In this document: positions 15,313-31,047 of the stretch, one piece after another
Position numbering within the stretch: position 1 is the first letter of the stretch
How the letters are laid out: every line of letters starts with the position of its first letter
From: an uncultured Clostridia bacterium
GTDB lineage: Bacteria > Bacillota > Clostridia > TANB77 > CAG-508
Reading direction: 5' to 3'
DNA length: 64,000 nt
Assembly (NCBI GenBank): GCA_946529215.1
Contig: CAMMZC010000003.1
Location: forward strand, 3,976 to 67,975
The notes under the pieces: generated by a model
Told to the model about the DNA's origin: nothing
What the model saw: only the letters and a program-made list of their open reading frames with translations
Databases searched by the model: none
Translations under genes and position numbers: made by a program

Positions 15313-15594
15313 TTATTGAGCATTAGCTACTTTCTTTTCTTCTACAGGATATACACTAACTTGTTTTTTATCTTTACCTTTTCTTTCAAATTTAACTGTA
15401 CCGTCAACTAATGCATAAAGTGTATCATCACTTCCAATATCTACATTAGTACCTGGATGTACCTTTGTTCCTCTTTGCCTTACTAAGATATTTCCTGCTA
15501 GAACAAATTGACCATCAGCTCTTTTTACACCAAGACGCTTAGATTCACTATCTCTACCGTTATGGCTGCTACCTTGACCTTTTTTATGAGCCAT
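15313..15594 (-). CDS. rpmA: 50S ribosomal protein L27
   Basis: 93 aa. [16 protein letters not shown]... is diagnostic for L27. Confidence 0.95.
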
Positions 15595-15655
15595 GTTTTT
15601 TCACTCCTTCCAGTTTTCGAATTTATATACTTTTAATTTAAATTCTAATTTTTAA

Positions 15656-16075
15656 TTAAGCATTAGCAGTTGCTTTTACTTTAGCTTCTGATTTTTTTGT
15701 ACTAGTTGTTTTTGTTTCAGTTTTTTTTGCTTCAGTTGCTTTAGTTTCTGCTTTTTTTGCTGTTGCTAAATTGATTGATGTAATCTCAACCTTTGTGTAT
15801 GGTTGTCTGTGTCCTTGTTTCTTTCTTTCATTCTTTTTAGCTTTCATTTTGAAAACAATGATTTTTTTGTGTTTACCATGAGAAACAACTTTTCCTTCAA
15901 CCTTTACACCTTTAACATAAGGATTTCCAACTTGTACTTTTCCTTCATCTGAAACTAAAACTACATTGTCGAATGTAACTTTTTTTCCTTCTTCAGCTTC
16001 TAATTTTTCGAAAAATACTACATCTCCTTCTGCTACTTTGTATTGTCTTCCACAGCTTTCAATTATTGCGTACAT
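15656..16075 (-). CDS. rplU: 50S ribosomal protein L21 (with lysine/alanine-rich C-terminal extension)
   Basis: 139 aa. [14 protein letters not shown]... is diagnostic for L21. There is no prp gene between rplU and rpmA. Confidence 0.93.
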
Positions 16076-16321: not shown

Positions 16322-16397
<76 letters not shown>

Positions 16398-16402
16398 AAT
16401 AG

Positions 16403-16440
16403 AAACCTTGAAAACTTACGTTTTCAAGGTTTTTTATTTA
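16403..16440 (+). terminator. Rho-independent terminator after tRNA-fMet
   Basis: Hairpin aaaccttgaaaa-cttacg-ttttcaaggttt, then TTTTATTT. Confidence 0.75.
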
Positions 16441-16499
16441 ATAAAATTGTTAATACATTTGCAAATTTTAGTTAAGATATATATTTATTTTCTGATGCT

Positions 16500-18575
16500 T
16501 TATTGATTTTTTAATTTTAATATGTTGATTGTTTCCATAGTTTCTTTAGACTTCTCGTTATCTTTGCCATATACTTTGCATTGTAATTTGTATAATTTTT
16601 CGTATAACTCTAGCGAATTATTATATTTTTTCATTTTTTTATAAATACTAGCTAAATTATTTAAATTCCTTAATGTATTTGGATGAGTTTTCCCTAATGT
16701 TTCTTCACTCTTTTTATATGCTTCTTTTCCAAATTTTATAGCATTATCATAATTTTCTATATCACTATAATAAGTTGCAAGATTGTTTAACGATGTTAAT
16801 GTGTTAGGATGAGAGTCTCCCAATATTTCCTTTAATTTATTATAAACTATTTCACCTAATTTTACAGCTTTATTATAATTTCCCGTATGATTATAATAAT
16901 AAGAAAGATTATTTAAGCTTCTAAATGTATCTGGATGCTCATATCCTAATGTCTCTTTTCTATTTTTGTATACCTTTTCTCCTAACCTTATTGCTTCTTT
17001 ATAATCTTTTTTATAATTATAATAAATTGCAAGTCTGTTTAAACTTGTTAATGTATTTGGATGAGTTTTGCCTAATGTTTCTTTTCTTTTTTTATACACA
17101 TCTTTTCCGAGTTTTATTGCCATATCATAATTTCCTATATTACTGTAACTGACAGCTAGATTATTTAAACTAGTTAATGTATCAATATGAGTTTCTCCTA
17201 AACTTTCTTCTCTTTTTCTATATACTTCTTCTCCAAGTTTTATTGCTATATCATACTTTCCAATATCATCATAACCTCTCGCTATATTATTTAAACTATC
17301 TAATGTATATAAATTATTCTCTCCTAATACTTCTTTTTGGATTTTATAGCATTCATTGTTTACTTCCAATGCTTTGTTATAATCACCTGTATTTCTATAA
17401 GCAACAGCCAATTTAGTTAAACTTATCAATGTATTTAAATGTTTTTCTCCTAATTCTTTTTTATCTTTTTCATATACCTTTTTTTGCCACTCTAAAGCTT
17501 TTTTATAATCTAATTTTGTTCCTTTACCTTCTTCATATATATATACAAGCTCTTTCATTGCTTCTTTACATTCAAGATTTCCTGATTGTTCAAGCAGTTT
17601 TATTCCTTTTTCTTTATTTACTTCAACATCAATGCCATTTAAATATGCTAATCCTATAAAGTATAAGTGTTTTGGATCATCATTTTCCCTCCATGCTTCA
17701 TTTATTAAATACTTTTTTAAAGATTCACTTAAAAGCTCTGTATCATTTACTTTAATCGGAACAGGTATTTCTTTATATTTTTTTTGTAATTCTTCTTTAC
17801 TTGTATCTACCGCTTCAATTGGAACTATATTTTTACATTCTTTTTTAGCATTTGGATATTCTATTTTTTCCACATAGTTTTCTTCATTTACTAGATTTGG
17901 CGTTACAACCATTGCAAATAATTTACTTTTCTTCAAAGCTTCCTCTATTGACTCATTAAAATCTTGCCCTGGCTTTAAAAACTCATCATACCAAATTGCA
18001 ATATCTCTGCAAAATTCATTTTCATGAATTAAATGCATTATGTTTTCAGCATGTTTTTTGTCTTTTTTTCTATAACTTAAAAATATATATGCATCAAAAG
18101 CTTCTTGAACCTGTTTTCTCAATTCATCACTTACTAATACTGATTCTATATATTCTTTTAATTTACTTTTATATTTTTCTTCTCCAACAACTAACTTACT
18201 TAATGCTTGAAGGTTTCCACATTTTTCGTTAAAGTAGCTATCTATATTTGGCTCCATCATTATTGGCAAAATTGGAATATGATTATCCATTGCATATTGA
18301 AATTCTACTACTCTTGCATCACATTCTTCTGATATAAATTTCCATGTTACAGGTATCACAAATAAGTTTATTTGGCTCAAGTCATCTATAATTTCTCTTG
18401 AATTAATATTTTTATCAGCTTTATAATAAATTACACAATTTCTTATATCTAGAATTTCTTCAGTTATCTCTTCAAAATATTTATCAAAATCATTTTGATA
18501 GCAACAAAAATATACTCTTGATTTATCTTTTAGTTCTTTTCCTCTTGTTTTATATTTTAACTTTATTTCTTCCAT
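16500..18575 (-). CDS. Tandem TIR-like domains + TPR (TPR_10/12-type) repeat protein
   Basis: 691 aa. Residues about 160-300 match the TIR pattern (YIFLSYRKKD...IAIWYDEFLKPGQDF...FAMVVTPNLVNE). Residues about 15-150 are a second TIR/DUF4062-like module (RVYFCCYQNDFDKYF...). The C-terminal half holds about 8 TPR repeats ending in SLNNLA..Y/ LGK.HPNTL. Confidence 0.7.
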   Translation of the reverse strand: MEEIKLKYKTRGKELKDKSRVYFCCYQNDFDKYFEEITEEILDIRNCVIYYKADKNINSREIIDDLSQINLFVIPVTWKFISEECDARVVEFQYAMDNHIPILPIMMEPNIDSYFNEKCGNLQALSKLVVGEEKYKSKLKEYIESVLVSDELRKQVQEAFDAYIFLSYRKKDKKHAENIMHLIHENEFCRDIAIWYDEFLKPGQDFNESIEEALKKSKLFAMVVTPNLVNEENYVEKIEYPNAKKECKNIVPIEAVDTSKEELQKKYKEIPVPIKVNDTELLSESLKKYLINEAWRENDDPKHLYFIGLAYLNGIDVEVNKEKGIKLLEQSGNLECKEAMKELVYIYEEGKGTKLDYKKALEWQKKVYEKDKKELGEKHLNTLISLTKLAVAYRNTGDYNKALEVNNECYKIQKEVLGENNLYTLDSLNNIARGYDDIGKYDIAIKLGEEVYRKREESLGETHIDTLTSLNNLAVSYSNIGNYDMAIKLGKDVYKKRKETLGKTHPNTLTSLNRLAIYYNYKKDYKEAIRLGEKVYKNRKETLGYEHPDTFRSLNNLSYYYNHTGNYNKAVKLGEIVYNKLKEILGDSHPNTLTSLNNLATYYSDIENYDNAIKFGKEAYKKSEETLGKTHPNTLRNLNNLASIYKKMKKYNNSLELYEKLYKLQCKVYGKDNEKSKETMETINILKLKNQ

Positions 18576-18647
18576 AACAATACTCCTATCATAAAAATTC
18601 TCTACTATTTTGTAAATGGTAAATTATTTAAAAAAATAACAATGTTA

Positions 18648-19232
18648 TTAATTAGTGATTGATTTACACATATAAATCCAAATATAGCTCCACAAATTCC
18701 ACCGAATTAAATGAGAATCATGTGCTATATTATCTTTCTTTCTTAGATCTTTTATTTCATCTATAATATAAAATATTATTATTAATACTAGAGTTATTGG
18801 TATTTTATTTTCTGTAATATTAACAAATGCACTTAAAACAGTTAGCATAAAAGATATACAGCTTGCACCTTTAAGCCATTCTTTTCCTTTAATAAAATTG
18901 AAAATTCCAACCACAAATGCAGTTATTAATATCATAATTAATAAATTAACAGAACCGTACTTTTCTTCTATAAGAGGTCCGAGTAATAAAATTTTTAGAT
19001 AATTATTTGAAAGATGACTCCAATCAGCATGTCCAAGTATATGTGTAAATAATCTTATATAAGTTAATGGGTTTAGTAAAGACGCTCTTTCTGTCGAAAA
19101 TACACGTCTTGTAGATTTTCCTTTTGTAATTTTGTCTAATAGAAGCACACCAAGAGATATAAAGAACATTGTAAGAGTTACAACAGCATTATATTGAAAA
19201 TAGTCCATTATATTAATTTCTTGTATATTCAA
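18648..19232 (-). CDS. Rhomboid-family intramembrane protease-like membrane protein
   Basis: 194 aa, multi-TM. GHADWSHLSNN, GASCIS (GxSx) and AHDSHL motifs are rhomboid-like. The ORF-track start is TTG; an alternative ATG is at 19208. Confidence 0.5.
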   Translation of the reverse strand: MNIQEINIMDYFQYNAVVTLTMFFISLGVLLLDKITKGKSTRRVFSTERASLLNPLTYIRLFTHILGHADWSHLSNNYLKILLLGPLIEEKYGSVNLLIMILITAFVVGIFNFIKGKEWLKGASCISFMLTVLSAFVNITENKIPITLVLIIIFYIIDEIKDLRKKDNIAHDSHLIRWNLWSYIWIYMCKSITN

Positions 19233-19543
19233 TGTTATCTCTTCCCTTCTTTATTCACCTTTAATATATTTTTGTATATCTTTAACTGCTTTTTTATTTC
19301 TTCTTATTTCTCTTGCTCTATTGATATCTTCCTTATACAACTCTTTGCATCTTATTTATTCTATCTATAATATCTCTTATTTCTTCTTGGTTATATTCTT
19401 TCATAAACTACTCCTACTCATTTTCAAAATACTGACTAAACTGATTTTTTAATTCGTTTAAATCATCAAAATCTATCACATCTTCTTTAATTTTACCATA
19501 CCTTATGCATAAATGGGCCATGTATATTTTATTACTTTTTTTA

Positions 19544-22500
19544 TTATTCATTTATTTTTCTTATAACTATTTCATCTTTCTCTTTAATAACAAATTCATT
19601 CATTTCTTCTTTATCAATAAATTTATAATAATATTCTCCTAAAGGTAAATTTCTTGCACCTGCTTGGCCATTTTCATTGGTAGTTATTGTTATAATCTCA
19701 TCTTTATTGCTATCAAAAATCCTTATTTTTAAACCTACCTTAGGTTTATTATTTTTATCTTTAACTTGTATTGCAAATCTCCCTTTATAACGCTCTACTT
19801 TTATAACTGGATAAAAAGTTCTATTTTCGTCATCAATAGTAACTCTATATGTTGTTTCATCCATTATATAATTTCCTGTAAGACTAATTAACTTAAATAA
19901 ATACACAAATAAATAGCCATGACGCAAAGTAACATATGCTTTACCATCTCCATCTGTTACTACTTCAGTTAAATAATGTCCTTCTTTATCATAAATATAG
20001 AATGTTCCACCTTGAATTGGGTTACTTGCATCATCAACTAATGTAATAACTAGTTGATTTCTAGGATATATCAATTTAAAATTTGTTACATCTGCACCGT
20101 TAACATATACATATTTTGACATAAGTTCTTTATCCTTGTTATATTTGTCAACTAATGCGATTCTATACATTCCAACAGGAACTTTATAGTAGCTAATTTT
20201 GGCATCAGATCCAACAAATGACTGTCCTAATTTATTATCTGCACTATCATAAAGATTTACTGCATATCCTATAAGTGCATCCTCATTTAAATCAACAAAT
20301 TTTGCTTGAATTTCTCCTAAATAGCCCAGGTTCTTATTTGGAACAAATTCGCTAATATTTTGCTTTTTAACATTTAAAGCTTTAGATGTTTCTTCATCTG
20401 TCAATTCTTTGGCTATTTTAATTAATTCATTTGAAGCAAGATTTTCTGAAATTTCAATTCCAATATCTTTTAAAATTTTTTTTCTTAATTCTATAGCATC
20501 TTTCAATTGTTTTGCTTTAATCATTTCTTGTAAGATTTTGAATTGAAATAACTCATAATCTCCGACATTGTATTTTTCAAACTTTATTTTCTTAAATATT
20601 GCTTGATATTCCACACATTTTTCGTAGTTTTTAATTGCGTCCTTTGGTTTATTATTTTTGCTTTCAACTTCAGCTAATTTAGCATATATTTCGCTTAAAA
20701 AATAATCTCGTATAGCTCTACCATAAATATTATTTTCACTTATAAATTCATTATTATTTTTCACATAAGAAATAGCGTTTTTATATGCACTTGTTGCTTT
20801 TTTAAAATTAGTTTCCTTTAAACTATTTTCAGCTACTTCGTAATATTTAGTTTTCAAATCTTCTATTAATTCGTTATATTTTTCTGTTTGTTTTTTGTAG
20901 TTTTCTATTGCTTGATTTTTTTTATTTATTAAATTTTCAATTTCTTTTTTTGAACTTGTATTGTCTGGTAAAATCACAACTTTATTATTAATAACATCTA
21001 TTTCATCATCATAAAGCAAAATTAAATTTTTATACAAACCATATGTCTTATATATTTCTTCTAATTTATTAAAAGAATCAAACATAACCAAATTATAAAA
21101 TATAGGTTTTTCAAAAAGATTCTCTTTAACATAACATAGAATTTCATTATAAATACCAACAATTTCACTATAATCTTTTTCTACAAAACCAATTTTGTTG
21201 AATTTGTAATTAGCATACTTATAATAAAGGTCTATCTTGATTTCTTGTAAATCATCAAATTTTATAGAAAATTGATGATATTTAAACCATGATTTAATTG
21301 CCTTAAAATAATTATCTACAATTTTATTAAATAAACCAATATTTGTAAAATACTTAAATATTCCATATGAACTTCTAATAATAGAATATACAGCCACATC
21401 ATTTTGATTATATTTATTATTGTTTAAAGTTTTGATTATATCCGAATATATAAATATTGCTTTGTTTAAATTCTTTTTTCCCTCTTTTGTTTTTTCATCA
21501 TCAAAAAATTTTTCAGCTTCACTACAAAGTAAGTCAGCTTTAGCTAAATCTATTTCGGATTTAATAACTGTTAAATCTCTATGATTTTCAATATTTAATT
21601 CTATCTCATAAATATTATATAAAGATTTAATAGTATTTTTTGCTTTTTCAAAGTCACCACTTAATTCATAAAACTTTGATAGCTTTATTGCTAAATTCAT
21701 TGAGTAATCTATATGATTATATTCAGCCCAATCTAAATATTTTTGTATTAATTCTGCAGCTTTGCAATAATCTTCTTGTTTATTACAAAATTCTGCAAAT
21801 ATTAAAAAGGTATCTCTTTGTAAATTGTTATCTTCTTCGACTTTTATTGCTCTTTCATATGAGGCATAGATTTCTTTAACTCTATCTGGATTATTAATAT
21901 CTAAATTATATGTTTCAGCTCTTGATATTAATTCTTGTACAAATTCAGATAATTTCTTTCTTCCACTCTCCTGCTCTACTTCTATATGTACAATATCATC
22001 ATTAATTTCTTCAATATTAAGTATTTCTTTAGCAGATTCTAAGTCACCTCTTTCTAAGCATTTATACGCAGCAATTTGTTTCTTTGTAAGATTATTTTTC
22101 CCCGCTTCTTTAGAAAACTTTTTACTAAAATCAAATATTTGATTTTCTAAATTTTGAATATCTCTTTTATATTTATAATATTTCTCTGTAATTTCATCTA
22201 ATTTATTTGCTTCTTCTTTTGTATATTTTGTTTTATCAGATGATTTTAATTCCAAATATTCATCTTCAATTTTTTCAAATTTTTCTTTTAATTCAATTAA
22301 CTGCTCATTCTTAAAAAACATCGGAATTTTATCTAATACTAATATTTCCTCGCCATCTATACAAATGCTTCCATCAATTATTTCAATTGTTACATTTGAT
22401 GTTTTCATGTCATCGATTTTATTATTAATTTCATATTTAATACGATAAATATCAATATATTCACCATAGTAATGTTGCAAATTATCTCCAACATATTTAA

Positions 22501-23341
22501 TAAACTCATCTGCTTTTTTAGTTCTCTCTTTTACATCTTTTCTAACAAATGGTCTTAAATCAAGACTCTCATTTTCAATAAAATATTTATATGCATTATC
22601 AAAGTCTTTATATATTTTTTCGTCAATGTCTTTACCAACTATTAAAAATAATCCTGAACAATCTTTCAGTTGTTTTTCTGTTAGAGAAGTTATATCTTCA
22701 TTAGTAATAAAATTAAAATATACACGATGCTTTTTATATTTATCATTTATGTTCCTAATAAAATTACTAATTGCATATTTATCATTTTCTATATCTTTAT
22801 TTCCTTCAAGAAAAATAAAGTTATATTTTTTTAATTCTTCTTTTTCTAAATCTTCTTCATCAATTTTTTCAATACTATTATTTATTATTTCTTTAACCTT
22901 ATTATATAATTCTTCTTCTTCATCATATTCTTTTATTTTATTTTTAAATCCACCATTTAATACATCATTACCAAGTTTTTCTCTAAATTTAGCTACTGAA
23001 TCATCAGCATCACATTTTTTAAAGAATATAAACCTTCTTATACCTTTAACTTCTTTAGATACATCATATTCTTCAACAGTATATTCTCCTGCTCTTTTCC
23101 CAATTAGCAATATCATAACATCAGATTCTCTTAATTTTTGATTATATTGCTCTTGTTTTCTGCCTTTTACCATAGAATTATCTTCAAATTCACATTCAAA
23201 CAAATTAATCCTAATACCTTTTTCTAATAAGTCATCTTGCATTCTTCTTACTAAGTCGCCAATTTTATTTCTTTCAGTTTCAAATTCATTAATAGAAGAA
23301 GCTAAAAATATTTTTATTTCATTTTTATTATAACTTGGCAT
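19544..23341 (-). CDS. Large cytoplasmic multi-domain protein: two DUF4062/TIR-like modules + coiled-coil/TPR + C-terminal Cna-B/carboxypeptidase-regulatory-like beta-sandwich repeats
   Basis: The N-terminus IKIFLASSINEFETERNKIGDL...SDVMILLIGKRAGE fits the DUF4062 pattern. A second similar module follows (YNFIFLEGNKD...CSGLFLIVGKDIDE). The middle has TPR-like helical repeats. The C-terminal about 250 aa has repeats like TLVDDASNPIQGGTFYIYDKEGHY and GLKIRIFDSNKDE. No signal peptide. Likely start is ATG at 23341 (RBS GAGGA); the ORF-track start at 23356 is GTG. Confidence 0.6.
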   Translation of the reverse strand: MPSYNKNEIKIFLASSINEFETERNKIGDLVRRMQDDLLEKGIRINLFECEFEDNSMVKGRKQEQYNQKLRESDVMILLIGKRAGEYTVEEYDVSKEVKGIRRFIFFKKCDADDSVAKFREKLGNDVLNGGFKNKIKEYDEEEELYNKVKEIINNSIEKIDEEDLEKEELKKYNFIFLEGNKDIENDKYAISNFIRNINDKYKKHRVYFNFITNEDITSLTEKQLKDCSGLFLIVGKDIDEKIYKDFDNAYKYFIENESLDLRPFVRKDVKERTKKADEFIKYVGDNLQHYYGEYIDIYRIKYEINNKIDDMKTSNVTIEIIDGSICIDGEEILVLDKIPMFFKNEQLIELKEKFEKIEDEYLELKSSDKTKYTKEEANKLDEITEKYYKYKRDIQNLENQIFDFSKKFSKEAGKNNLTKKQIAAYKCLERGDLESAKEILNIEEINDDIVHIEVEQESGRKKLSEFVQELISRAETYNLDINNPDRVKEIYASYERAIKVEEDNNLQRDTFLIFAEFCNKQEDYCKAAELIQKYLDWAEYNHIDYSMNLAIKLSKFYELSGDFEKAKNTIKSLYNIYEIELNIENHRDLTVIKSEIDLAKADLLCSEAEKFFDDEKTKEGKKNLNKAIFIYSDIIKTLNNNKYNQNDVAVYSIIRSSYGIFKYFTNIGLFNKIVDNYFKAIKSWFKYHQFSIKFDDLQEIKIDLYYKYANYKFNKIGFVEKDYSEIVGIYNEILCYVKENLFEKPIFYNLVMFDSFNKLEEIYKTYGLYKNLILLYDDEIDVINNKVVILPDNTSSKKEIENLINKKNQAIENYKKQTEKYNELIEDLKTKYYEVAENSLKETNFKKATSAYKNAISYVKNNNEFISENNIYGRAIRDYFLSEIYAKLAEVESKNNKPKDAIKNYEKCVEYQAIFKKIKFEKYNVGDYELFQFKILQEMIKAKQLKDAIELRKKILKDIGIEISENLASNELIKIAKELTDEETSKALNVKKQNISEFVPNKNLGYLGEIQAKFVDLNEDALIGYAVNLYDSADNKLGQSFVGSDAKISYYKVPVGMYRIALVDKYNKDKELMSKYVYVNGADVTNFKLIYPRNQLVITLVDDASNPIQGGTFYIYDKEGHYLTEVVTDGDGKAYVTLRHGYLFVYLFKLISLTGNYIMDETTYRVTIDDENRTFYPVIKVERYKGRFAIQVKDKNNKPKVGLKIRIFDSNKDEIITITTNENGQAGARNLPLGEYYYKFIDKEEMNEFVIKEKDEIVIRKINE

Positions 23342-23383
23342 TCTTATTTTCCTCACTTATCTTATTACTTTTTATATATTACC

Positions 23384-25288
23384 CTATTCTGTAAAATCAT
23401 TTAACATCATTTTTACTATATCGTAATCACTTGATTTTAAATCTTTATTAATTCCCATACTTTGTAATTGATAAGAAACATTATCTAATTCTTCAAAAGG
23501 CACAAGAGCTGGGTGTCTTCTTCCTAAATAATCTCTGTGATCATTTAATATAGGATAATATCTTCTTACATCATCAATATTGGCTTTTATATACCCTATT
23601 GTTCTCATGTAGGCATTCCATCTATCATGTTCATTTTTTGCAAGCATTTCTTTTAATTCTTCTGTATAAATTTCTCTAAACATTTTCAAATTTTCTTTTA
23701 GATTTTTAGAATATTTTTCTCCTAATACAGAATACAATTTATATTTTACATGAAGTGCACTTGCTCTTGATGAACGTTTATTATATTCATTTAAATAATA
23801 ATCTGCAGAACTTCCACGATATGCTTTATGTATTTTTTCTCCAATTTTCTCAATTTCAGAATCAACTATTTTATTATCAAAATACATATCTTTTACACTG
23901 CCAAAAGCATTTATATCATATGTTGTTTCTTTTTCATTAATAAGCTTGTTTACTTGTTCTTTTTTATATTCATTTTGAATCCAAATATTTATTATTGGCT
24001 TTCTCTCATAATTTCTAATAAATAATCTTCTTAAATCTATTGCTGTATCTAAATTTTTACTATCTGTCTCCATTGATACTAATATATAATTTATGTCATT
24101 TACCTGTTCTATAGCCTCTATTGCTTTTGGAGATTTTATATCTGCATTAACAAATGTAATATCATAATTATTTAAAATGTCAGGTGTTTCAATTTCAAAA
24201 TTTTTCTTAATTTCGTCTGCTTTTATATCAATTACTAATGCTTTAAATCTATAACCTATCATCATTCCACACCATAAAGCATCTTTTAAAAATTCTTTTC
24301 CTACTTGTCCACAACCAACAATAAGCAATGATATAACATTATCAATTGCTCCTTCATAAATTGGCTTTTTATCTAATAAATTGAAAATTGCTCTTTCTTT
24401 TTCATTTACAATTTCTACATTAACAAACTCTTTATCAGATAAATCTAATTTTATAAGTTCTTGTTCGATTTTATCTTCAACTTCTGCATCTACAACATCT
24501 TTATCTGATAATCCTAATTTTGTCAGTATTTTTTTTCTTTCTTCTAATTTTATTTTATTAATAATATCTCTATTTGCCGAGTCTAAAACTATTGGCGCTT
24601 CTTCAGTATTGTTTATAACATATACTTTAATCTTTTGGTTTTTGTATTTTTCCATAATTTCTAACGCATCATTAAGATTTTGTTCTTCATTTTCAGAAAT
24701 CATATATATAGTTATATTATTATCATAATTATTTAAATTAATTTCGCTCATTTTTTCGGAAAGCTTTATAGATTTAAAAGAATCTGTTTTACCATTTCTT
24801 TTATATTCTACATTAGTAAATATAACTGCATTATTATTGTTCACATAACCTTCTGCAATCATAACAGATTTCTCATTCATTTCTGAAAAAAAGTATAAAT
24901 TTTTATTTTTTAATCTCTTAATTTTAATACCTTTAAATAAATCGTTTAAAATAGCAATTAAAGTACTTACAGTAAAAAAAGGCAAAGCAATTAAAAAGAT
25001 ATTTATCCAAATAAAATATCCAATTCCAAAAGCACTATGTGTATTAATTTTTGATAAAACATCTATATCTTCGTTTAGTGTTATACTTTTTAATGCATAA
25101 TAAAATGTATTAGTTACTTTGATGGCGATATTACTATAATCTAAAAGTGGAAACACCAAAATTCCCAAACAAATAAGTCCTATTCCCATTATTATAAAAA
25201 ATCTATATTTAGTGTCTATTTTGTAATTTTTTAATAATACAAATCCAATTATTGTTACCACAATACTTAAACTAAAAGTTATTACCAT
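23384..25288 (-). CDS. Membrane protein with 2-3 N-terminal TM helices, Rossmann (TrkA_N/RCK-like) domain and C-terminal RyR domain
   Basis: 634 aa. N-terminal hydrophobic helices. VGCGQVGKEF is a GxGxxG motif. C-terminal ...HDRWNAYMRTIGY...RRHPALVPFEELD resembles the RyR (PF02026) pattern. The start codon abuts the stop of the upstream RyR gene. Confidence 0.55.
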   Translation of the reverse strand: MVITFSLSIVVTIIGFVLLKNYKIDTKYRFFIIMGIGLICLGILVFPLLDYSNIAIKVTNTFYYALKSITLNEDIDVLSKINTHSAFGIGYFIWINIFLIALPFFTVSTLIAILNDLFKGIKIKRLKNKNLYFFSEMNEKSVMIAEGYVNNNNAVIFTNVEYKRNGKTDSFKSIKLSEKMSEINLNNYDNNITIYMISENEEQNLNDALEIMEKYKNQKIKVYVINNTEEAPIVLDSANRDIINKIKLEERKKILTKLGLSDKDVVDAEVEDKIEQELIKLDLSDKEFVNVEIVNEKERAIFNLLDKKPIYEGAIDNVISLLIVGCGQVGKEFLKDALWCGMMIGYRFKALVIDIKADEIKKNFEIETPDILNNYDITFVNADIKSPKAIEAIEQVNDINYILVSMETDSKNLDTAIDLRRLFIRNYERKPIINIWIQNEYKKEQVNKLINEKETTYDINAFGSVKDMYFDNKIVDSEIEKIGEKIHKAYRGSSADYYLNEYNKRSSRASALHVKYKLYSVLGEKYSKNLKENLKMFREIYTEELKEMLAKNEHDRWNAYMRTIGYIKANIDDVRRYYPILNDHRDYLGRRHPALVPFEELDNVSYQLQSMGINKDLKSSDYDIVKMMLNDFTE

Positions 25289-25579
25289 TTATAGTTCCTC
25301 CTTAATTATTTTAAATCCAAGTTTTTGTATTAATTTCAATGTTTCAATAGCTGTATTTCTATCATATTCTTTTTCGCTTTCTGGCAAACTTTCATAAGAT
25401 ACTAAACAAGGTGTAGTTTTCAATTTATCATCTCGTACTATTCCATATTTCCAACCTTCATTTATTCTTCCTATAGCCCATACTTCATGTGTATTCTTAG
25501 CTAGTTTCTCCGCTAGTTTTAAAATTTCCTCACTTAAAATAACATCCTTTGTATCTACAGGTTTTGGTTGATAGTTCAT
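25289..25579 (-). CDS. RyR (ryanodine-receptor repeat) domain protein
   Basis: 96 aa. LAKNTHEVWAIGRINEGWKYGIVRDDKLKTTPCLVSYESLPESEKEYDRNTAIETLKLI matches the RyR-domain consensus (W...GW.YG..RD......P.LVPYE.L.E.EKE.DR). Confidence 0.7.
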   Translation of the reverse strand: MNYQPKPVDTKDVILSEEILKLAEKLAKNTHEVWAIGRINEGWKYGIVRDDKLKTTPCLVSYESLPESEKEYDRNTAIETLKLIQKLGFKIIKEEL

Positions 25580-25904
25580 ATTTTTCCTCCTTTTTTAACT
25601 TTCTTCATAAAACTTAAATTCTTCTTCATATGTGTGTAAAAAAAATTATATATGTAAGTGGATTTAAAAGTAATTCTTCATCGTCTGTTACATCTTCATC
25701 ATATTTTTGTCTATTATATCATAAAATTTCATATTTGTCTTGTTTTAAAGTCAAAAAATAAGTTTTTTATCTTATACTTTCACAAACTCTCTCACAACTA
25801 TTTGGCTAAAAAAAGGGCAAAATGTTTACATTCACACACCATTTATAAAAAATATATTGATATTTCAGTAAATTTTGGGTTATTTGTCTTGTCCTCATCA
25901 ACCA

Positions 25905-25948
25905 AATAAAAGCCCTGAAAATATTAATTTTTCAAGGCTTATTTTTTT
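25905..25948. terminator. Bidirectional terminator hairpin overlapping stop of DUF1189-like gene
   Basis: agccctgaaaa-tattaatt-ttttcaaggct followed by T7 on the plus strand and a U-rich stretch on the minus strand. Confidence 0.5.
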
Positions 25949-26819
25949 CATTTCTTTTTTGTTTCCACAAGATTAAATACAAATAAACAAATATTATTCC
26001 AATACTTATTATATCCATAATAGAAATTCTAAATTTTGTAAAATAACTCATTATCATATATGTAACAAAAACTATCATAGACAAGGTAGAAGCGTAAATT
26101 GTATTCATTAATGATTCTTTATAAGTCCATTTGCTTTTTAAGATTTTAGTAACAAGCCACAAACCTACAGAAATTAATGAAATATATATAACATACATCA
26201 GAGCTATACTTCCGAAATATACAACAAAATATTGTGCTATATAATATGAAAATGAAGTTCTTTTTCTTAAATATTCTAAAACATCTTTTTTGCCATATTC
26301 ATAGTTTAAATCTTTTATAAAATTTGAAGAAATCTCAGAATATTTTTGTGATACAAGTCCTTCTTCATTTTTGTTTTCATGATTGTATTTATTTGAGATT
26401 AAAACATATTCTTCTTTTAGAAATATAATAACATTATTCCTATCTGTTGCTAGATCTTTATATTGTTCTATCGCTTCTTGTTTTTCAAGAAGCGGATTTA
26501 TAACAATTACATTCCTAAAAAATTCAATTATTTTTTCATCATCTAATATAGTTGCCTCTTCGTTTTCAAGTGATAAAATATTTTCTTTAAATTTAATTTC
26601 AGGTAATTTTTCATCTAAATAATTAATTGAATTTTTTACAACATCTAATTGTAAAAAAGTTGCGATTATAGCTACAATTAAAGCTAATATACATACTACA
26701 TAGAAGAAATACTTTATTGCCTTGCTAATACCTTGTTTTCTGAGTTCCTTATATTTGCTTGGTTTTGCAATTGAATACCATATTTTCTTAAAAAAATTTA
26801 TTTTTATATTTTCTTCCAA
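25932..26819 (-). CDS. DUF1189-like membrane protein
   Basis: 295 aa. N-terminus FFKKIWYSIAKPSKYKELRKQGISKAIKYFFYVV plus multiple TM helices resembles the DUF1189 family. Confidence 0.45.
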   Translation of the reverse strand: MEENIKINFFKKIWYSIAKPSKYKELRKQGISKAIKYFFYVVCILALIVAIIATFLQLDVVKNSINYLDEKLPEIKFKENILSLENEEATILDDEKIIEFFRNVIVINPLLEKQEAIEQYKDLATDRNNVIIFLKEEYVLISNKYNHENKNEEGLVSQKYSEISSNFIKDLNYEYGKKDVLEYLRKRTSFSYYIAQYFVVYFGSIALMYVIYISLISVGLWLVTKILKSKWTYKESLMNTIYASTLSMIVFVTYMIMSYFTKFRISIMDIISIGIIFVYLYLILWKQKRNEKNKP

Positions 26820-26984
26820 ATCAGATCATTCCTCTCTTAAATACTTATAGTTGTTTAATTCTTCTTTTCTTAAACTAAATCATTATTTTAAATACACATA
26901 TATAATAGCACTTGAATAAAAAAAATGCAATCAAAACTTTAAAAATAAAAAGATTTTTATGTAATCAAATTTTTAAGCGCAAAA

Positions 26985-27195
26985 AATCCCCGCTGTAGCC
27001 GTAACTTGTGCCAAAATTTTTAACAACCTGCTCTCACAAACAGGTGGGTGCCTACCTAAATACTCATGGGCTTCTTACTACTATTATATTGCAAAAAGTG
27101 TAAGCTTGCACGCCATATTCAGAGTTCAGCCCCTCTTTAAACTTGTAGGTTCTAAAAATTCTGCAATACGCACTATGCAGGGGTTTTGTTTAATT
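26985..27195 (+). ncRNA. Candidate structured small RNA of unknown class (6S-like or other)
   Basis: About 210-bp non-coding segment with clearly higher GC than its flanks, lying between two minus-strand genes. The 5' end CCCCGCTGTAG can pair with the 3' end CTATGCAGGGG, followed by TTTT. Internal hairpins include GGTGGG-TG-CCTACC and CCTAC...GTAGG. GU pairs favour the plus strand. Confidence 0.3.
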
Positions 27196-27427
27196 ATTTT
27201 ATTGTTATATTTATATTATCATATAATAGCATTTTTTTCAAATAATTTAAGGTGCTAAATTGCTTTATTAATGTTTTTTATTATGGATTAATCTTATTCT
27301 TATTAATTTATTCTCTTTTAATCTTCATTTTTTGCCACTTTATATTTTTAATTTTTCACTAGTATTATAGCTAAGAATCTTTTATTTTGCTTGAGTTGAA
27401 AATTAAAGCATTATATGAAAATATATC

Positions 27428-29746
27428 TTAAATTCTACTAGAATTGCAAGAAAAATATATAACTTGATATTTTTTCGTAAATTCTTGTAAAATTTCAAGT
27501 GCTTTTGAGGTTTTTGATTCATCTAAATTTACAAATGGGTCATCAAGCACAACAAATGGTGTTTCGCCACTAAACAAAGCATCTATTAAACTAAATCTCA
27601 TACAGATATAAATTAAGTCTTTGTATCCAGTGCTAAAAGTTTTTATTTCTTTTTGAGAACCATTTACTTCTATTTTTACATCTAAATTTGTATCAACAGA
27701 AGTTTTTAATTCTTTGGTATCAATCAAAGATAAATATTTATTAAATCCAATAACCATACTTTTTAGATAATTTGATGAAAAGTTTTCTTTTGATGTTTTT
27801 AAAAGTTCTTCTGTTTTGTTTAAAATTTTATATTTTTCTTCTAAATTGCTTATTTCTCCTTTTAAATTTTCTATATCACTTTCTAAATATTCACTTTCAT
27901 CAATTCTATTTTCTAAAACCTCTATTTGATTTTTTATTTGATTTTTTTCGTCATTTAGCATATCAATTTTGTTATTTAAAACATCTATTTTATGCTTGAT
28001 TTCTTCTTCAGAAGCGGATATTTCTTCTATATTTTTAAATTCCTCAACATTATTTTCTTTTTCATATTTTTCTTTTTTGTCAATTATATCTTTTAGTTGA
28101 TTTTTAGATTCTTCAAATTGATTTATTTTTATTTTCAAATCTTGTATTAGGTCTGTATATGATTTGTCTATACTTATATAATATGTTTTAAAGTCATCTT
28201 CTATTTCATTTTTTAATTTTTCAAGATTAATTTTTAAATTTTGTAAAGACACATCTTTTGATATTTTGTTTTTTAATAGTGTTTTATAATTACTGTATTC
28301 TGTTTTTAAACTAGTTAAATCTAAAATCTTATTTGAACTTTCTGCTGAATAATATTGTTTTAAGAAATTTTCTACATTATGGTTTATTTCTTCTTTTTTA
28401 TTTTGCATATCTTCTATTTCTTTTTGAAGATTTAAAATTTCTTTGCTCAAGCTAGAAATTTTACGTCTTTTGTTTTTAGATAAAAAACTGAATAAACCAA
28501 AAAGTATACCTGTAGAAATTAGACTTATTCCTGCTATTTTTTGTATATTTGTAATTATCAAACCACTGCCTATTATTATTAATAATAAAGATAATATTAT
28601 TGTAATTAACACCTTTTTACGTTTTTTATTAACTATGTCTAAATCATTTTGTTTTTGTTCTTTCTCTTTTTTCTTTGTATTGACTTTTTCTTCTATATCT
28701 TGTATTTGCGAATATTCAAAAATATTTTTATCTATTTCTTCTATTGAAATATTTCCATTTTTATATTTATTTTGCAGTACTTCTAATTCTTTTGCTTCTT
28801 CATCTGTTATTTTGCAATTTGATATTTCTAATTTTGTTTTTTCTATTTCATAATTTTTATTAGCTAGATTTTCTAAAAATGAATTTGTAGGAATCCCATT
28901 TGAGAAAAATTTTTCAAAATTTTTATATTCTTCTTGGTAAGAAGAATATTTAGTTAGTATTGAGTCATAAACTTCTTTTTTGGCTTTAACTCTATCTTGT
29001 TCAATCTTTTTTTTAAGTAGTTTTTGTTCCTCAATTCTTTGATTTTCTAAGGTATGTATTTCATTTATTTTTTCTTCTAATTGATTTTTTCTTGTTTCAA
29101 AATTTTCAATATCTATTTTGCTATTTTCAAATTTTCTTTGTAAATCATATAATTTAGTCTTTTTTTCGTCTATTAGTCCACCTTGTCCTCTATCTTTTTT
29201 ATATATTTTTTTTGCTTCATTGAGTTTCTTTAATGCTTCTTCTGATGTGTTTATATCATTATCACTTTCTAACATATTTGTAAGTTTAGCATTAATGCTG
29301 TCTTCCATCTCAATCTGTATTTGCCCTTGTGGTATGTATGTACTTCTTTCATAAGCACTTTTGTTTATTTTAAATATTTCTTCTCCGATATTTTCTGAAT
29401 AATCTTTGCTCTCCAAATTTGTTTCTAAATTATATAATTTAAATGTATCATCAGTAGCTTTTTTTCCAAATGTTCTTTCTATTCTATATTTTTTGCTATT
29501 TATTTCAAATTCAATACTTCCGCCATATATTCCTCCTTGCCATGGAATATATCTTTTTCTATCTGATTTTTCAAATCTTGCATTTGCTTGAGTATCTAAC
29601 CCATAAAACATAGATTTAATAAATGTTGCAAAAGTTGTTTTTCCAAATCCATTATCTTGTTTTATTGTATTTAATCCATCTTGAAAATCATAACTAAAAT
29701 CTTGCAATTTACCAAAATTTTGTATATGGCATTTTAATAATTTCAT
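27428..29746 (-). CDS. YhaN/SbcC-like AAA ATPase with long coiled coils and central TM segment
   Basis: 772 aa. N-terminal Walker A GFGKTTF. Extensive coiled coil. Internal hydrophobic stretch VLITIILSLLLIIIGSGLII. C-terminal VVLDDPFVNLDE Walker B/D-loop. Confidence 0.7.
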   Translation of the reverse strand: MKLLKCHIQNFGKLQDFSYDFQDGLNTIKQDNGFGKTTFATFIKSMFYGLDTQANARFEKSDRKRYIPWQGGIYGGSIEFEINSKKYRIERTFGKKATDDTFKLYNLETNLESKDYSENIGEEIFKINKSAYERSTYIPQGQIQIEMEDSINAKLTNMLESDNDINTSEEALKKLNEAKKIYKKDRGQGGLIDEKKTKLYDLQRKFENSKIDIENFETRKNQLEEKINEIHTLENQRIEEQKLLKKKIEQDRVKAKKEVYDSILTKYSSYQEEYKNFEKFFSNGIPTNSFLENLANKNYEIEKTKLEISNCKITDEEAKELEVLQNKYKNGNISIEEIDKNIFEYSQIQDIEEKVNTKKKEKEQKQNDLDIVNKKRKKVLITIILSLLLIIIGSGLIITNIQKIAGISLISTGILFGLFSFLSKNKRRKISSLSKEILNLQKEIEDMQNKKEEINHNVENFLKQYYSAESSNKILDLTSLKTEYSNYKTLLKNKISKDVSLQNLKINLEKLKNEIEDDFKTYYISIDKSYTDLIQDLKIKINQFEESKNQLKDIIDKKEKYEKENNVEEFKNIEEISASEEEIKHKIDVLNNKIDMLNDEKNQIKNQIEVLENRIDESEYLESDIENLKGEISNLEEKYKILNKTEELLKTSKENFSSNYLKSMVIGFNKYLSLIDTKELKTSVDTNLDVKIEVNGSQKEIKTFSTGYKDLIYICMRFSLIDALFSGETPFVVLDDPFVNLDESKTSKALEILQEFTKKYQVIYFSCNSSRI

Positions 29747-29764: not shown

Positions 29765-30850
29765 TTATAATAAATCTTCTCCTGAAAGTGCTTTAATTCC
29801 AGTGCTTATAACTTTATTTTTTTCTTCCTCTGTTAAATCTTTTTGATCTAATACAAGCCTTATAAATTCACCTTTTAAAGAAATATCATTTTGAAATTTC
29901 ATATAATCTATTTTGATATTTGGCTTATCTTCGATTTTTAGAAAAAAGAAATCTGATTCAAATTTTTTTGTTAAATAATCTATATCTCTTTCTTCTCCTA
30001 TCTCAATATCTCCGCCTAAAACTAATTTTACTAAGCTTGTTCCAGGAATACCCTTTAATTTTTCTGCTATGGATTGTTCAATTTCGTTATTTTCCTTTAA
30101 TCCTGTTAAGTCTGCATGAACTTCATATAATGTTCTATACGAAAAAGGTATAAACTCAGTTTTTATCTTATTATCTTCTATATTTAGTAGCACGAATCCC
30201 TTTTCTCCACATTCATCAAATCCTCTTCCTTCTAGACAACCAGAATAACAATATACTCCCCTATTGTCTAATTTTTCTTTTTTGTATGAATGAATATGTC
30301 CTAATGCAAGATAATCTATATTTTTGTTTTTAAGCTCTTTTAAATTTATTATCTCAGCTTTATCTTTTATAGATGTTTCTGACTCTTGACCATGCATAAC
30401 AACTATGTTTAACTTATTTTTTTCTAGAAATAAAGAATTATATATTTCATAATTTGGAGTATTTCCAAACTCTATTCCAGAAATTGTTATATTGCCATAT
30501 TCATAAGTTTGCCAATTATTTCTGTTAAATGTTTTTAAATTTGATGGTAATTCTTCATCTTCATCTATAAATCCGGCTTCATCATGATTTCCTTTTAAAT
30601 AGACAAAATCTATTTCAGGATTAGATATAATAGCATTTTTAACAGTCTTTTTAGCTTTAACAGTAACTGCTTTTTTATCAAATAAATCTCCTGCAATTAT
30701 TATTATTTTAACATCATTTTCTTTTGCATATTGTACCATTCTATCGAATGTAAGCAAAATTTCATTTTTTCTTTCTCTTGCTTTTTCTTTATCTAAGTTT
30801 GTTTCCATTTTAGAATCAAGATGTAAATCACTACAATGAATTATTTTCAT
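29765..30850 (-). CDS. Metallophosphoesterase, SbcD/YhaO-like DNA repair exonuclease
   Basis: MKIIHCSDLHLD... calcineurin-like phosphoesterase motifs (GDLFD, GNHD, GHIH). Start taken at ATG 30850; the ORF-track N-terminal extension was rejected. Confidence 0.78.
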   Translation of the reverse strand: MKIIHCSDLHLDSKMETNLDKEKARERKNEILLTFDRMVQYAKENDVKIIIIAGDLFDKKAVTVKAKKTVKNAIISNPEIDFVYLKGNHDEAGFIDEDEELPSNLKTFNRNNWQTYEYGNITISGIEFGNTPNYEIYNSLFLEKNKLNIVVMHGQESETSIKDKAEIINLKELKNKNIDYLALGHIHSYKKEKLDNRGVYCYSGCLEGRGFDECGEKGFVLLNIEDNKIKTEFIPFSYRTLYEVHADLTGLKENNEIEQSIAEKLKGIPGTSLVKLVLGGDIEIGEERDIDYLTKKFESDFFFLKIEDKPNIKIDYMKFQNDISLKGEFIRLVLDQKDLTEEEKNKVISTGIKALSGEDLL

Positions 30851-31047
30851 ATTTACTGACATTCCTTTCCTGCAAGGCACAAAATTTGATTAAAATAACT
30901 GCTTTTTCAGTTATTTTCAAACTTGCCTTGCTTTTCTAGAAGTTGACTAAAAGAAATTCTGCCCAATTTCTTTTTCAAAATATATCCTAACAAAAAAACA
31001 AAAAAATGTCAATAGTTTTTCGAACATTTTTTTGTTTTCTTTTTTTA

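Follow-up and report, generated by a model that had tools for sequence, protein, structure and literature searches.

A predicted 6S (SsrS) RNA gene between yhaN-like and DUF1189 genes of an uncultured low-GC Clostridia bacterium

6S RNA and promoters compete for the RNA polymerase holoenzyme that carries the housekeeping sigma factor. The RNA also serves this enzyme as a template, and synthesis of the resulting product RNA refolds 6S RNA and frees the polymerase (PMC9670815, PMC8876501, PMC8414754). In Escherichia coli, product-RNA synthesis starts at U44 (PMC9670815). The product RNA of Bacillus subtilis 6S-1 RNA (BsrA) is GUUCGGUCAAAACUA (PMC12005410). Two hallmarks of the product-RNA region have been described, namely GG at product-RNA positions 4/5 or 5/6 and an adenine 3'-adjacent to the template start (PMC8414754). 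The RNA is processed in both species. E. coli 6S RNA is matured by RNase E/G, and B. subtilis pre-6S-1 RNA has an A-rich single-stranded leader, which is trimmed by RNase J1 without effect on function (PMC10578484). The genomic position of the gene is kept only at the level of families and does not define a 6S RNA; in lactic acid bacteria, for example, the order is rarA–6S–uspA (PMC8414754).

The window in this study is the whole stretch of 64,000 nt that was analysed, from an uncultured Clostridia bacterium, on a metagenome scaffold (ENA ERZ28612970, SHIW14-1 scaffold_248). A first-pass annotation had singled out a GC-richer element at 26985-27195 between a DUF1189-like gene and yhaN and had proposed a 6S-like RNA, a novel small RNA, or a mobile-element remnant, with a preference for the plus strand. 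The 6S-like proposal is the one that held. A search of the whole window against Rfam 15, the check that had been suggested, returned RF00013 (6S/SsrS) on the minus strand at 76.2 bits, where the gathering score is 46.4. The match spans model positions 1-187 of 187 (E value of 3e-13 for the 64 kb and 3.7e-15 for 801 nt), and RF00013 is the sole non-tRNA match in the window. On this sequence evidence, the locus is very probably the ssrS gene for the 6S RNA of this low-GC bacterium. The reading as a novel small RNA was rejected because the element belongs to a known family. It is an ordinary and already known member of a well-known RNA family, recovered by a standard Rfam scan. Since the gene lies on the same strand as its neighbours and is not antisense to them, the result is routine annotation and not a discovery. 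The coordinates of all features are listed in Table 1.

Table 1. Features of the predicted 6S RNA locus, in window coordinates
Feature	Coordinates	Strand	Basis or remark
yhaO-like gene, calcineurin-like phosphoesterase	29765-30880	-	precedes the yhaN-like gene
yhaN-like gene, 772-aa AAA/SbcC-like ATPase	27428-29746	-	ahead of 6S
-35 box TTGAAA of the putative 6S promoter	27236..27241	-	promoter scan
Extended -10 box TGaTAATAT, 17-nt spacer from the -35 box	27213..27221	-	promoter scan
A-rich 5' leader predicted for the primary transcript	27187..27206	-	start at about 27206 inferred, 7 nt after the -10 box
Predicted 6S/SsrS RNA gene, mature-RNA-sized core, 204 nt	26983..27186	-	RF00013 match (27186..26983); conservation drops outside these limits
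Closing stem P1, 5' strand (RNA nt 2-19)	27168..27185	-	Rfam consensus structure
Helix P2 ('downstream helix'), 5' strand (RNA nt 29-39)	27148..27158	-	Rfam structure; invariant in 14 homologs
Central bubble, 5' side (RNA nt 40-53, 14 nt, UACAAGUUUAAAGA)	27134..27147	-	Rfam model register
Apical (terminal) arm (RNA nt 54-141)	27046..27133	-	Rfam structure
Central bubble, 3' side (RNA nt 142-158, 17 nt)	27029..27045	-	Rfam structure, MFE and alignment folds
Helix P2, 3' strand (RNA nt 159-169)	27018..27028	-	Rfam structure
Closing stem P1, 3' strand (RNA nt 185-202)	26985..27002	-	Rfam consensus structure
U6 run right after the closing stem; probable 3' end or termination site	26981..26986	-	sequence; terminator role inferred
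DUF1189 gene, 295 aa	25932-26819	-	after 6S

The comparison with the family model revealed no difference in any defining feature. In the model register, the RNA has the rod shape of the family, with the closing stem, helix P2, a large central bubble, and the apical arm, and the conserved blocks GUGCAAGC, GAAGC, CACCCACCUG, and ACGGC were matched. When the RF00013 consensus structure was mapped onto the RNA, 46 of its 51 pairs were standard. The RNA is 204 nt long, compared with about 180-200 nt for the family. The features particular to this RNA are its AU-rich helices and an apical loop of 21 nt (nt 88-108; 27079-27099). The loop varies in length, and large indels among homologs are confined to it. 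E. coli ssrS (a 100% match in 5426 genomes, annotated as 6S RNA) was aligned to RF00013 for reference and scored 139.8 bits against the 76.2 bits obtained here; a gap of this kind is expected for a distant lineage. The GC content is 55% in E. coli 6S RNA and 41% here. The genomic context differs as well, since E. coli ssrS is flanked by zapA and the 5-formyltetrahydrofolate cyclo-ligase gene. The rarA neighbourhood of lactic acid bacteria is also absent, the neighbours here being yhaN-like and DUF1189 genes.

The strand had been judged differently before. The first-pass annotation had argued that G-U pairing favours the plus strand and had placed the RNA antisense to the neighbouring genes. 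Such a plus-strand small RNA of about 200 nt is extremely unlikely. A closing stem can form on that strand, with TTTT after it, and the plus-strand fold reaches -47.7 kcal/mol (z -1.6), but the minus-strand fold is stronger, with a minimum free energy (MFE) of -59.2 kcal/mol (z -2.5). When placed on the Rfam structure, the RNA of the minus strand gives 40 Watson-Crick pairs, 6 G-U pairs, and 5 mismatches, whereas the mirrored plus-strand RNA gives 40, 1, and 10, respectively, which turns the G-U argument around. One-sided helix substitutions in the homologs (A-U to G-U; U-G to C-G or U-A) pair on the minus strand only and would break the pairs on the plus strand. In a permissive scan of both strands of 26700-27500, no Rfam family was found across the element on the plus strand at E ≤ 1. 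The promoter scan found no plus-strand promoter-like site upstream of 26985, while a conserved promoter-like site exists on the minus strand. The Rfam match, this site, the U-run, and the G-U pairs all point to the minus strand, co-oriented with yhaN and DUF1189, and the antisense orientation was abandoned. The element does lie between these two genes as annotated, both neighbours being minus-strand genes, and the minus strand carries nearly all genes of the window.

The earlier description of the element is for the most part borne out by the sequence. The closing stem between CCCCGCTGTAG and CTATGCAGGGG is real and corresponds to helix P1 of the predicted 6S RNA. The two internal hairpins described for the plus strand (GGTGGGTGCCTACC; CCTAC...GTAGG) are absent from the Rfam consensus structure and from the minus-strand fold. 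The bases in question take part in other helices or lie in the central bubble.

The GC content of the element stands out from its flanks, as had been noticed. It is 0.412 for 26983-27186, compared with a mean of 0.268 (sd 0.043) for all 204-nt windows (z = 3.3), and only 0.04% of these windows reach this value. The adjacent spacers have a GC content of 0.17 (27187-27427) and 0.20 (26820-26982). A GC-richer segment of this kind might be a decayed protein-coding fragment, an outcome that the first-pass annotation had named as fatal to an RNA gene, or it might hold a small unannotated ORF. In the window, a plus-strand frame is open over all 204 nt of the element (68 codons), and a listed 50-aa ORF with a TTG start (27106-27258, +) sits in this frame. 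The frame is stop-free in the window sequence only, and the corresponding frame of the homologs has 2-5 stops. In all six frames, each of the 11 homologs compared (8 distinct) has at least two stops. Homologs also differ by single-base indels, and conservation tracks the RNA helices and the bubble, not codon positions. A coding origin is hardly credible on these grounds. The earlier statement that the element lacks an ORF stands insofar as no ORF is conserved, and it fails for the one plus-strand frame that is open in the window. A gene caller could misannotate a small protein in this 68-codon frame, antisense to the 6S gene.

Homologous loci were collected by scanning genomes and metagenomes with a DUF1189 alignment and by five contig look-ups. 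The collection holds 14 distinct sequences, namely the window and 13 further loci (L003-L006, L085-L087, L090, L164, L166, L168, L169, and L171). The relatives are metagenome-assembled genomes (MAGs) of uncultured Clostridia, mostly from rumen or gut, with several ruminant digestive-tract samples among them. In each of the 13 further loci, RF00013 was matched with 68.5-85.6 bits directly upstream of DUF1189 and on the same strand. A yhaN-like gene lies upstream in every 6S-bearing locus, as seen by tblastn or, in the five looked-up contigs, from upstream gene calls of 672-780 residues. The identity of the RNA to that of the window was 83.9-97.5% in the eleven homologs measured. For the same loci, the protein-level identity was 39-74% for DUF1189 (78% in L084, a locus without upstream DNA) and 44-85% for YhaN. 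Conservation starts and stops abruptly at the RNA limits. No 6S RNA was found near DUF1189 loci of 35% identity or less (L007-L022, L094, and others); hence, the yhaN–6S–DUF1189 linkage is confined to a closer clade.

These data also bear on the proposed mobile-element remnant or repeat. Such an origin would suit an island of higher GC content in AT-rich intergenic DNA whose ends are complementary in inverted orientation, but the apparent inverted repeat is the closing stem of the 6S RNA. A blastn comparison against the 64 kb gave chance matches only, of at most 24 nt with E ≥ 0.46. The element is single-copy in the window and occupies one syntenic position in the 14 distinct loci, with no adjoining transposase or integrase. 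The mobile-element reading was rejected because the element is single-copy and syntenic in these loci, and we regard it as having next to no chance of being correct.

The 14 sequences were used to examine the pairs of the mapped structure. In total, 33 of the 51 pairs never vary and two change on both sides, in a clade that is too conserved for a strong test (14 distinct sequences, 84-97.5% identical). Of the two pairs changed on both sides, one lies at the base of the closing stem (AU/CG/UA/GU/UG), the other in the apical arm (AU/GU/GC). The first belongs to P1, in which 13 of the 17 model pairs are invariant. Across the alignment, 89.6% of the cells were paired, compared with 32-50% when the 3' partners were slid by 1-3 columns. 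The MAFFT alignment shifts L006 and L164 by one base near helix P2, which inflates the counts of unpaired cells there. In comparison with 500 shuffles, the observed values were reached by 1 shuffle for cells paired, 10 for cells changed on both sides, and 5 for the covariation score. The numbers of pairs changed on both sides (189/500) and of further pair types (47/500) were not exceptional. The test has low power because the homologs are 84-97.5% identical. The first-pass annotation had taken a lack of covariation in homologs as grounds for dismissal. This objection is neither borne out nor strongly overturned within the clade. The case for the structure depends chiefly on the family model, in which covariation across bacteria is already encoded. 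A concerted but non-compensatory change was seen in the apical arm. In L005, L169, and L171, a G-C pair (nt 57/136, about 27130/27051; alignment columns 63/155) becomes A·A. The pair at nt 59/134 (about 27128/27053; columns 65/153) is C-G in these three sequences and four more, and it is U-G in the window and six other sequences.

The central bubble deserves separate consideration. RNA nt 40-47, including C42 and A43, are invariant in the 14 sequences, and nt 48, 49, and 53 vary in one or two of them. The 3' side of the bubble, together with nt 159-161, can form an 8-bp hairpin (A142-U161), as seen in the MFE and alignment folds. For this hairpin, 92.8% of the cells were paired in the 14 sequences, compared with 39-67% when the partner was slid. 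In the MFE fold, two small hairpins fill the central bubble and the AU-rich helix is extended. The Rfam structure evaluates to -28.7 kcal/mol on the minus strand, against -59.2 kcal/mol for the MFE fold. Because the MFE fold fills the bubble with hairpins, the openness of the bubble comes from the family model and not from the energy minimum.

The predicted 6S gene appears to have its own extended -10 promoter of the sigma-A type (27241-27213), as does B. subtilis 6S-1. The motif TTGAnA-N14-TGnTAnTAT was present in all nine homologous loci examined, with the -35 box as TTGA[A/T]A and the same spacing, while the spacer sequence varies. Among the 128,000 positions of both strands of the window, the motif occurs once, at the 6S gene only. 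Between the -10 box and the closing stem lie 22-31 nt, an A-rich segment in every locus. The primary transcript would therefore carry a leader of about 12-20 nt and begin near 27206. An A-rich single-stranded 5' leader before the closing stem is found in B. subtilis 6S-1 (PMC10578484) and is likewise predicted here. This leader would probably be trimmed, as in B. subtilis 6S-1. The AT-rich promoter region also gave a match to CRISPR-DR61 at 27223-27261 (+), with 21 bits against a gathering score of 38 and an E value of 0.91. It was taken as a chance match because no repeat array is present.

At the other end, all 14 sequences have 4-8 U after GCGGGG and one base (A in 13 of the 14). The closing stem and the U-run probably set the 3' end. 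No hairpin-type terminator was found in 26700-27500, upstream or downstream of the element, by a scan that is blind to a stem looping the whole RNA. Termination at the U-run stays a supposition because the terminator scan is blind to such a long-range stem. Read-through from yhaN into 6S may occur. Like other 6S RNAs, this one may be a stable, abundant, and independently transcribed small RNA; the sequence signs of this are the conserved putative promoter and the U-run.

The element could instead be part of a longer transcript, either as the 5' leader of DUF1189 or as the 3' UTR or processed tail of a yhaO-yhaN operon, and its likeness to 6S RNA would then be incidental. Both neighbours share its strand, the terminator scan gave no hairpin-type terminator on either side of the element, towards yhaN or towards DUF1189, and the order yhaN–element–DUF1189 is kept in 14 of 14 distinct loci. 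The conserved extended -10 promoter of the element itself, the conserved U-run after the closing stem, and a second promoter-like sequence between 6S and DUF1189 (TTGATT...TGcTATTAT) argue against this view, as does the full-length 6S match, 30 bits over the threshold. In addition, the locus L091 (Ga0247611_10008805, 1-1500) has a DUF1189 homolog of 55% identity with no yhaN or 6S within 1500 nt upstream. DUF1189 therefore needs no such leader. A leader or 3' UTR with an incidental likeness to 6S RNA is accordingly very unlikely. L091 keeps the downstream tRNA-Met and L21, and its arrangement represents a local rearrangement in one lineage.

The product RNA of the predicted 6S RNA was deduced from the alignment of E. 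coli ssrS to RF00013. In this register, E. coli U44 falls on model position 45, occupied here by C42 (27145), and the conserved E. coli A45 falls on A43. A product RNA 5'-GUAGGUUCUAAAAA is predicted, with its start at template C42; in plus-strand letters from 27145, it would read GUAGGUUC... The template base is C42, and a GTP-initiated product RNA is therefore predicted. Past its first bases, the template would be the 5' strand of helix P2. GG occupies positions 4/5 of the predicted product RNA, and the template A43 is adjacent to the start, as described for known product RNAs. The template stretch (nt 29-42) is invariant in 14 of 14 sequences.

The predicted start was compared with those of E. 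coli SsrS and B. subtilis 6S-1 RNA. The start position aligns with that of E. coli SsrS, and GG is at product-RNA positions 4/5 in both. E. coli SsrS starts with ATP on a U template, whereas a GTP start on a C template is predicted here. B. subtilis 6S-1 product RNA likewise starts with G, and the predicted GUAGGUUCUAAAAA resembles GUUCGGUCAAAACUA; its GG is at positions 5/6, in contrast to the predicted 4/5 here. The 3'-side bubble hairpin is pre-formed in free B. subtilis 6S-1 RNA (PMC8876501), and the same is predicted here. In E. coli SsrS, the unwound 3' strand of P2 can join the 3'-side bubble hairpin (PMC8876501), as is also predicted for this RNA. Two traits of the Firmicutes 6S-1 type were found, as judged from the shared Rfam model and the predicted folds: the template C42, and a predicted pre-formed 3'-side hairpin that is kept in the homologs.

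By analogy with these systems, the predicted 6S RNA would bind the holoenzyme and template a product RNA. The folded RNA would mimic an open promoter and occupy the active-site channel of the RNA polymerase that carries the housekeeping sigma factor. When growth slows, the occupied polymerase would leave housekeeping transcription damped. When nucleotides return, the polymerase would copy the RNA from C42 into the short, GTP-initiated product. This synthesis would unwind P2 and liberate G159/G160. These two residues have alternative partners, C39/C38 in P2 and C144/C143 in the 3'-side bubble hairpin. Because the hairpin A142-U161 shares G159/G160 with P2, it would compete with P2 and be favoured once P2 is unwound. 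The freed residues could then remain in the 8-bp hairpin, and the polymerase would be released; such a role would match the hairpins that have been described for release in E. coli and the pre-formed hairpin of B. subtilis 6S-1 (PMC8876501). When nt 29-42 were blocked in silico, a small hairpin formed from the freed 3' strand of P2. This result comes from the energy model only and was given no weight.

A normal 6S RNA could still have unusual features in this clade of rumen and gut Clostridia. The RNA may be under unusually tight sequence constraint, being 84-97.5% identical where the proteins beside it reach 39-85%, with no variation in the 5' side of the bubble up to the predicted product-RNA start or in the 5' strand of P2. 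It may also be in fixed linkage behind yhaO/yhaN (an SbcCD-like nuclease/ATPase), with no hairpin-type terminator found between. This could mean co-transcription, a regulatory tie to the DNA-repair operon, or a second function beyond polymerase sequestration. We consider this improbable.

Several observations were made elsewhere in the window. A region of about 9.5 kb with minus-strand genes (16398-25931) is absent from the relatives L003, L088-L091, and, in part, L004. In those relatives, DUF1189 is followed directly by tRNA-Met, rplU (L21), and pgi. The region adjoins tRNA-Met (16322-16397, +) and holds five ORFs. Two of the encoded proteins relate to RyR: one of 96 aa has a RyR domain, and one of 634 aa gives a faint RyR match. 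Another, of 1270 aa, has DUF4062, TPR, and SpaA/Ig-like domains. The remaining two are a rhomboid protein and a TIR_2+TPR protein of 691 aa, the latter weakly matched by the ThsB-like and SAVED-TIR models of PADLOC. The region has the appearance of a strain-specific island next to a tRNA gene, possibly of the conflict or defence type. A GC peak at 15392-15595 was considered as a second structured RNA and was found to be the L27 gene. In this part of the window (15313-16075, -), rplU (L21, 139 aa) is followed directly by rpmA (L27, 93 aa). L21 has a lysine/alanine-rich C-terminal tail of about 36 aa past the part that matches relatives and Pfam. L27 begins with MAHKKG and lacks an N-terminal propeptide, and rplU and rpmA have no Prp protease gene between them.

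For the biology of 6S RNA, this locus raises no new question. Its value is in annotation, as it supplies the predicted 6S gene, its strand, its promoter, and the likely start of its product RNA in an uncultured low-GC Clostridia lineage without RNA annotation, and it removes a false candidate for a novel antisense small RNA. In related metagenome-assembled genomes, the yhaN–6S–DUF1189 order is a simple synteny anchor with which ssrS may be found.
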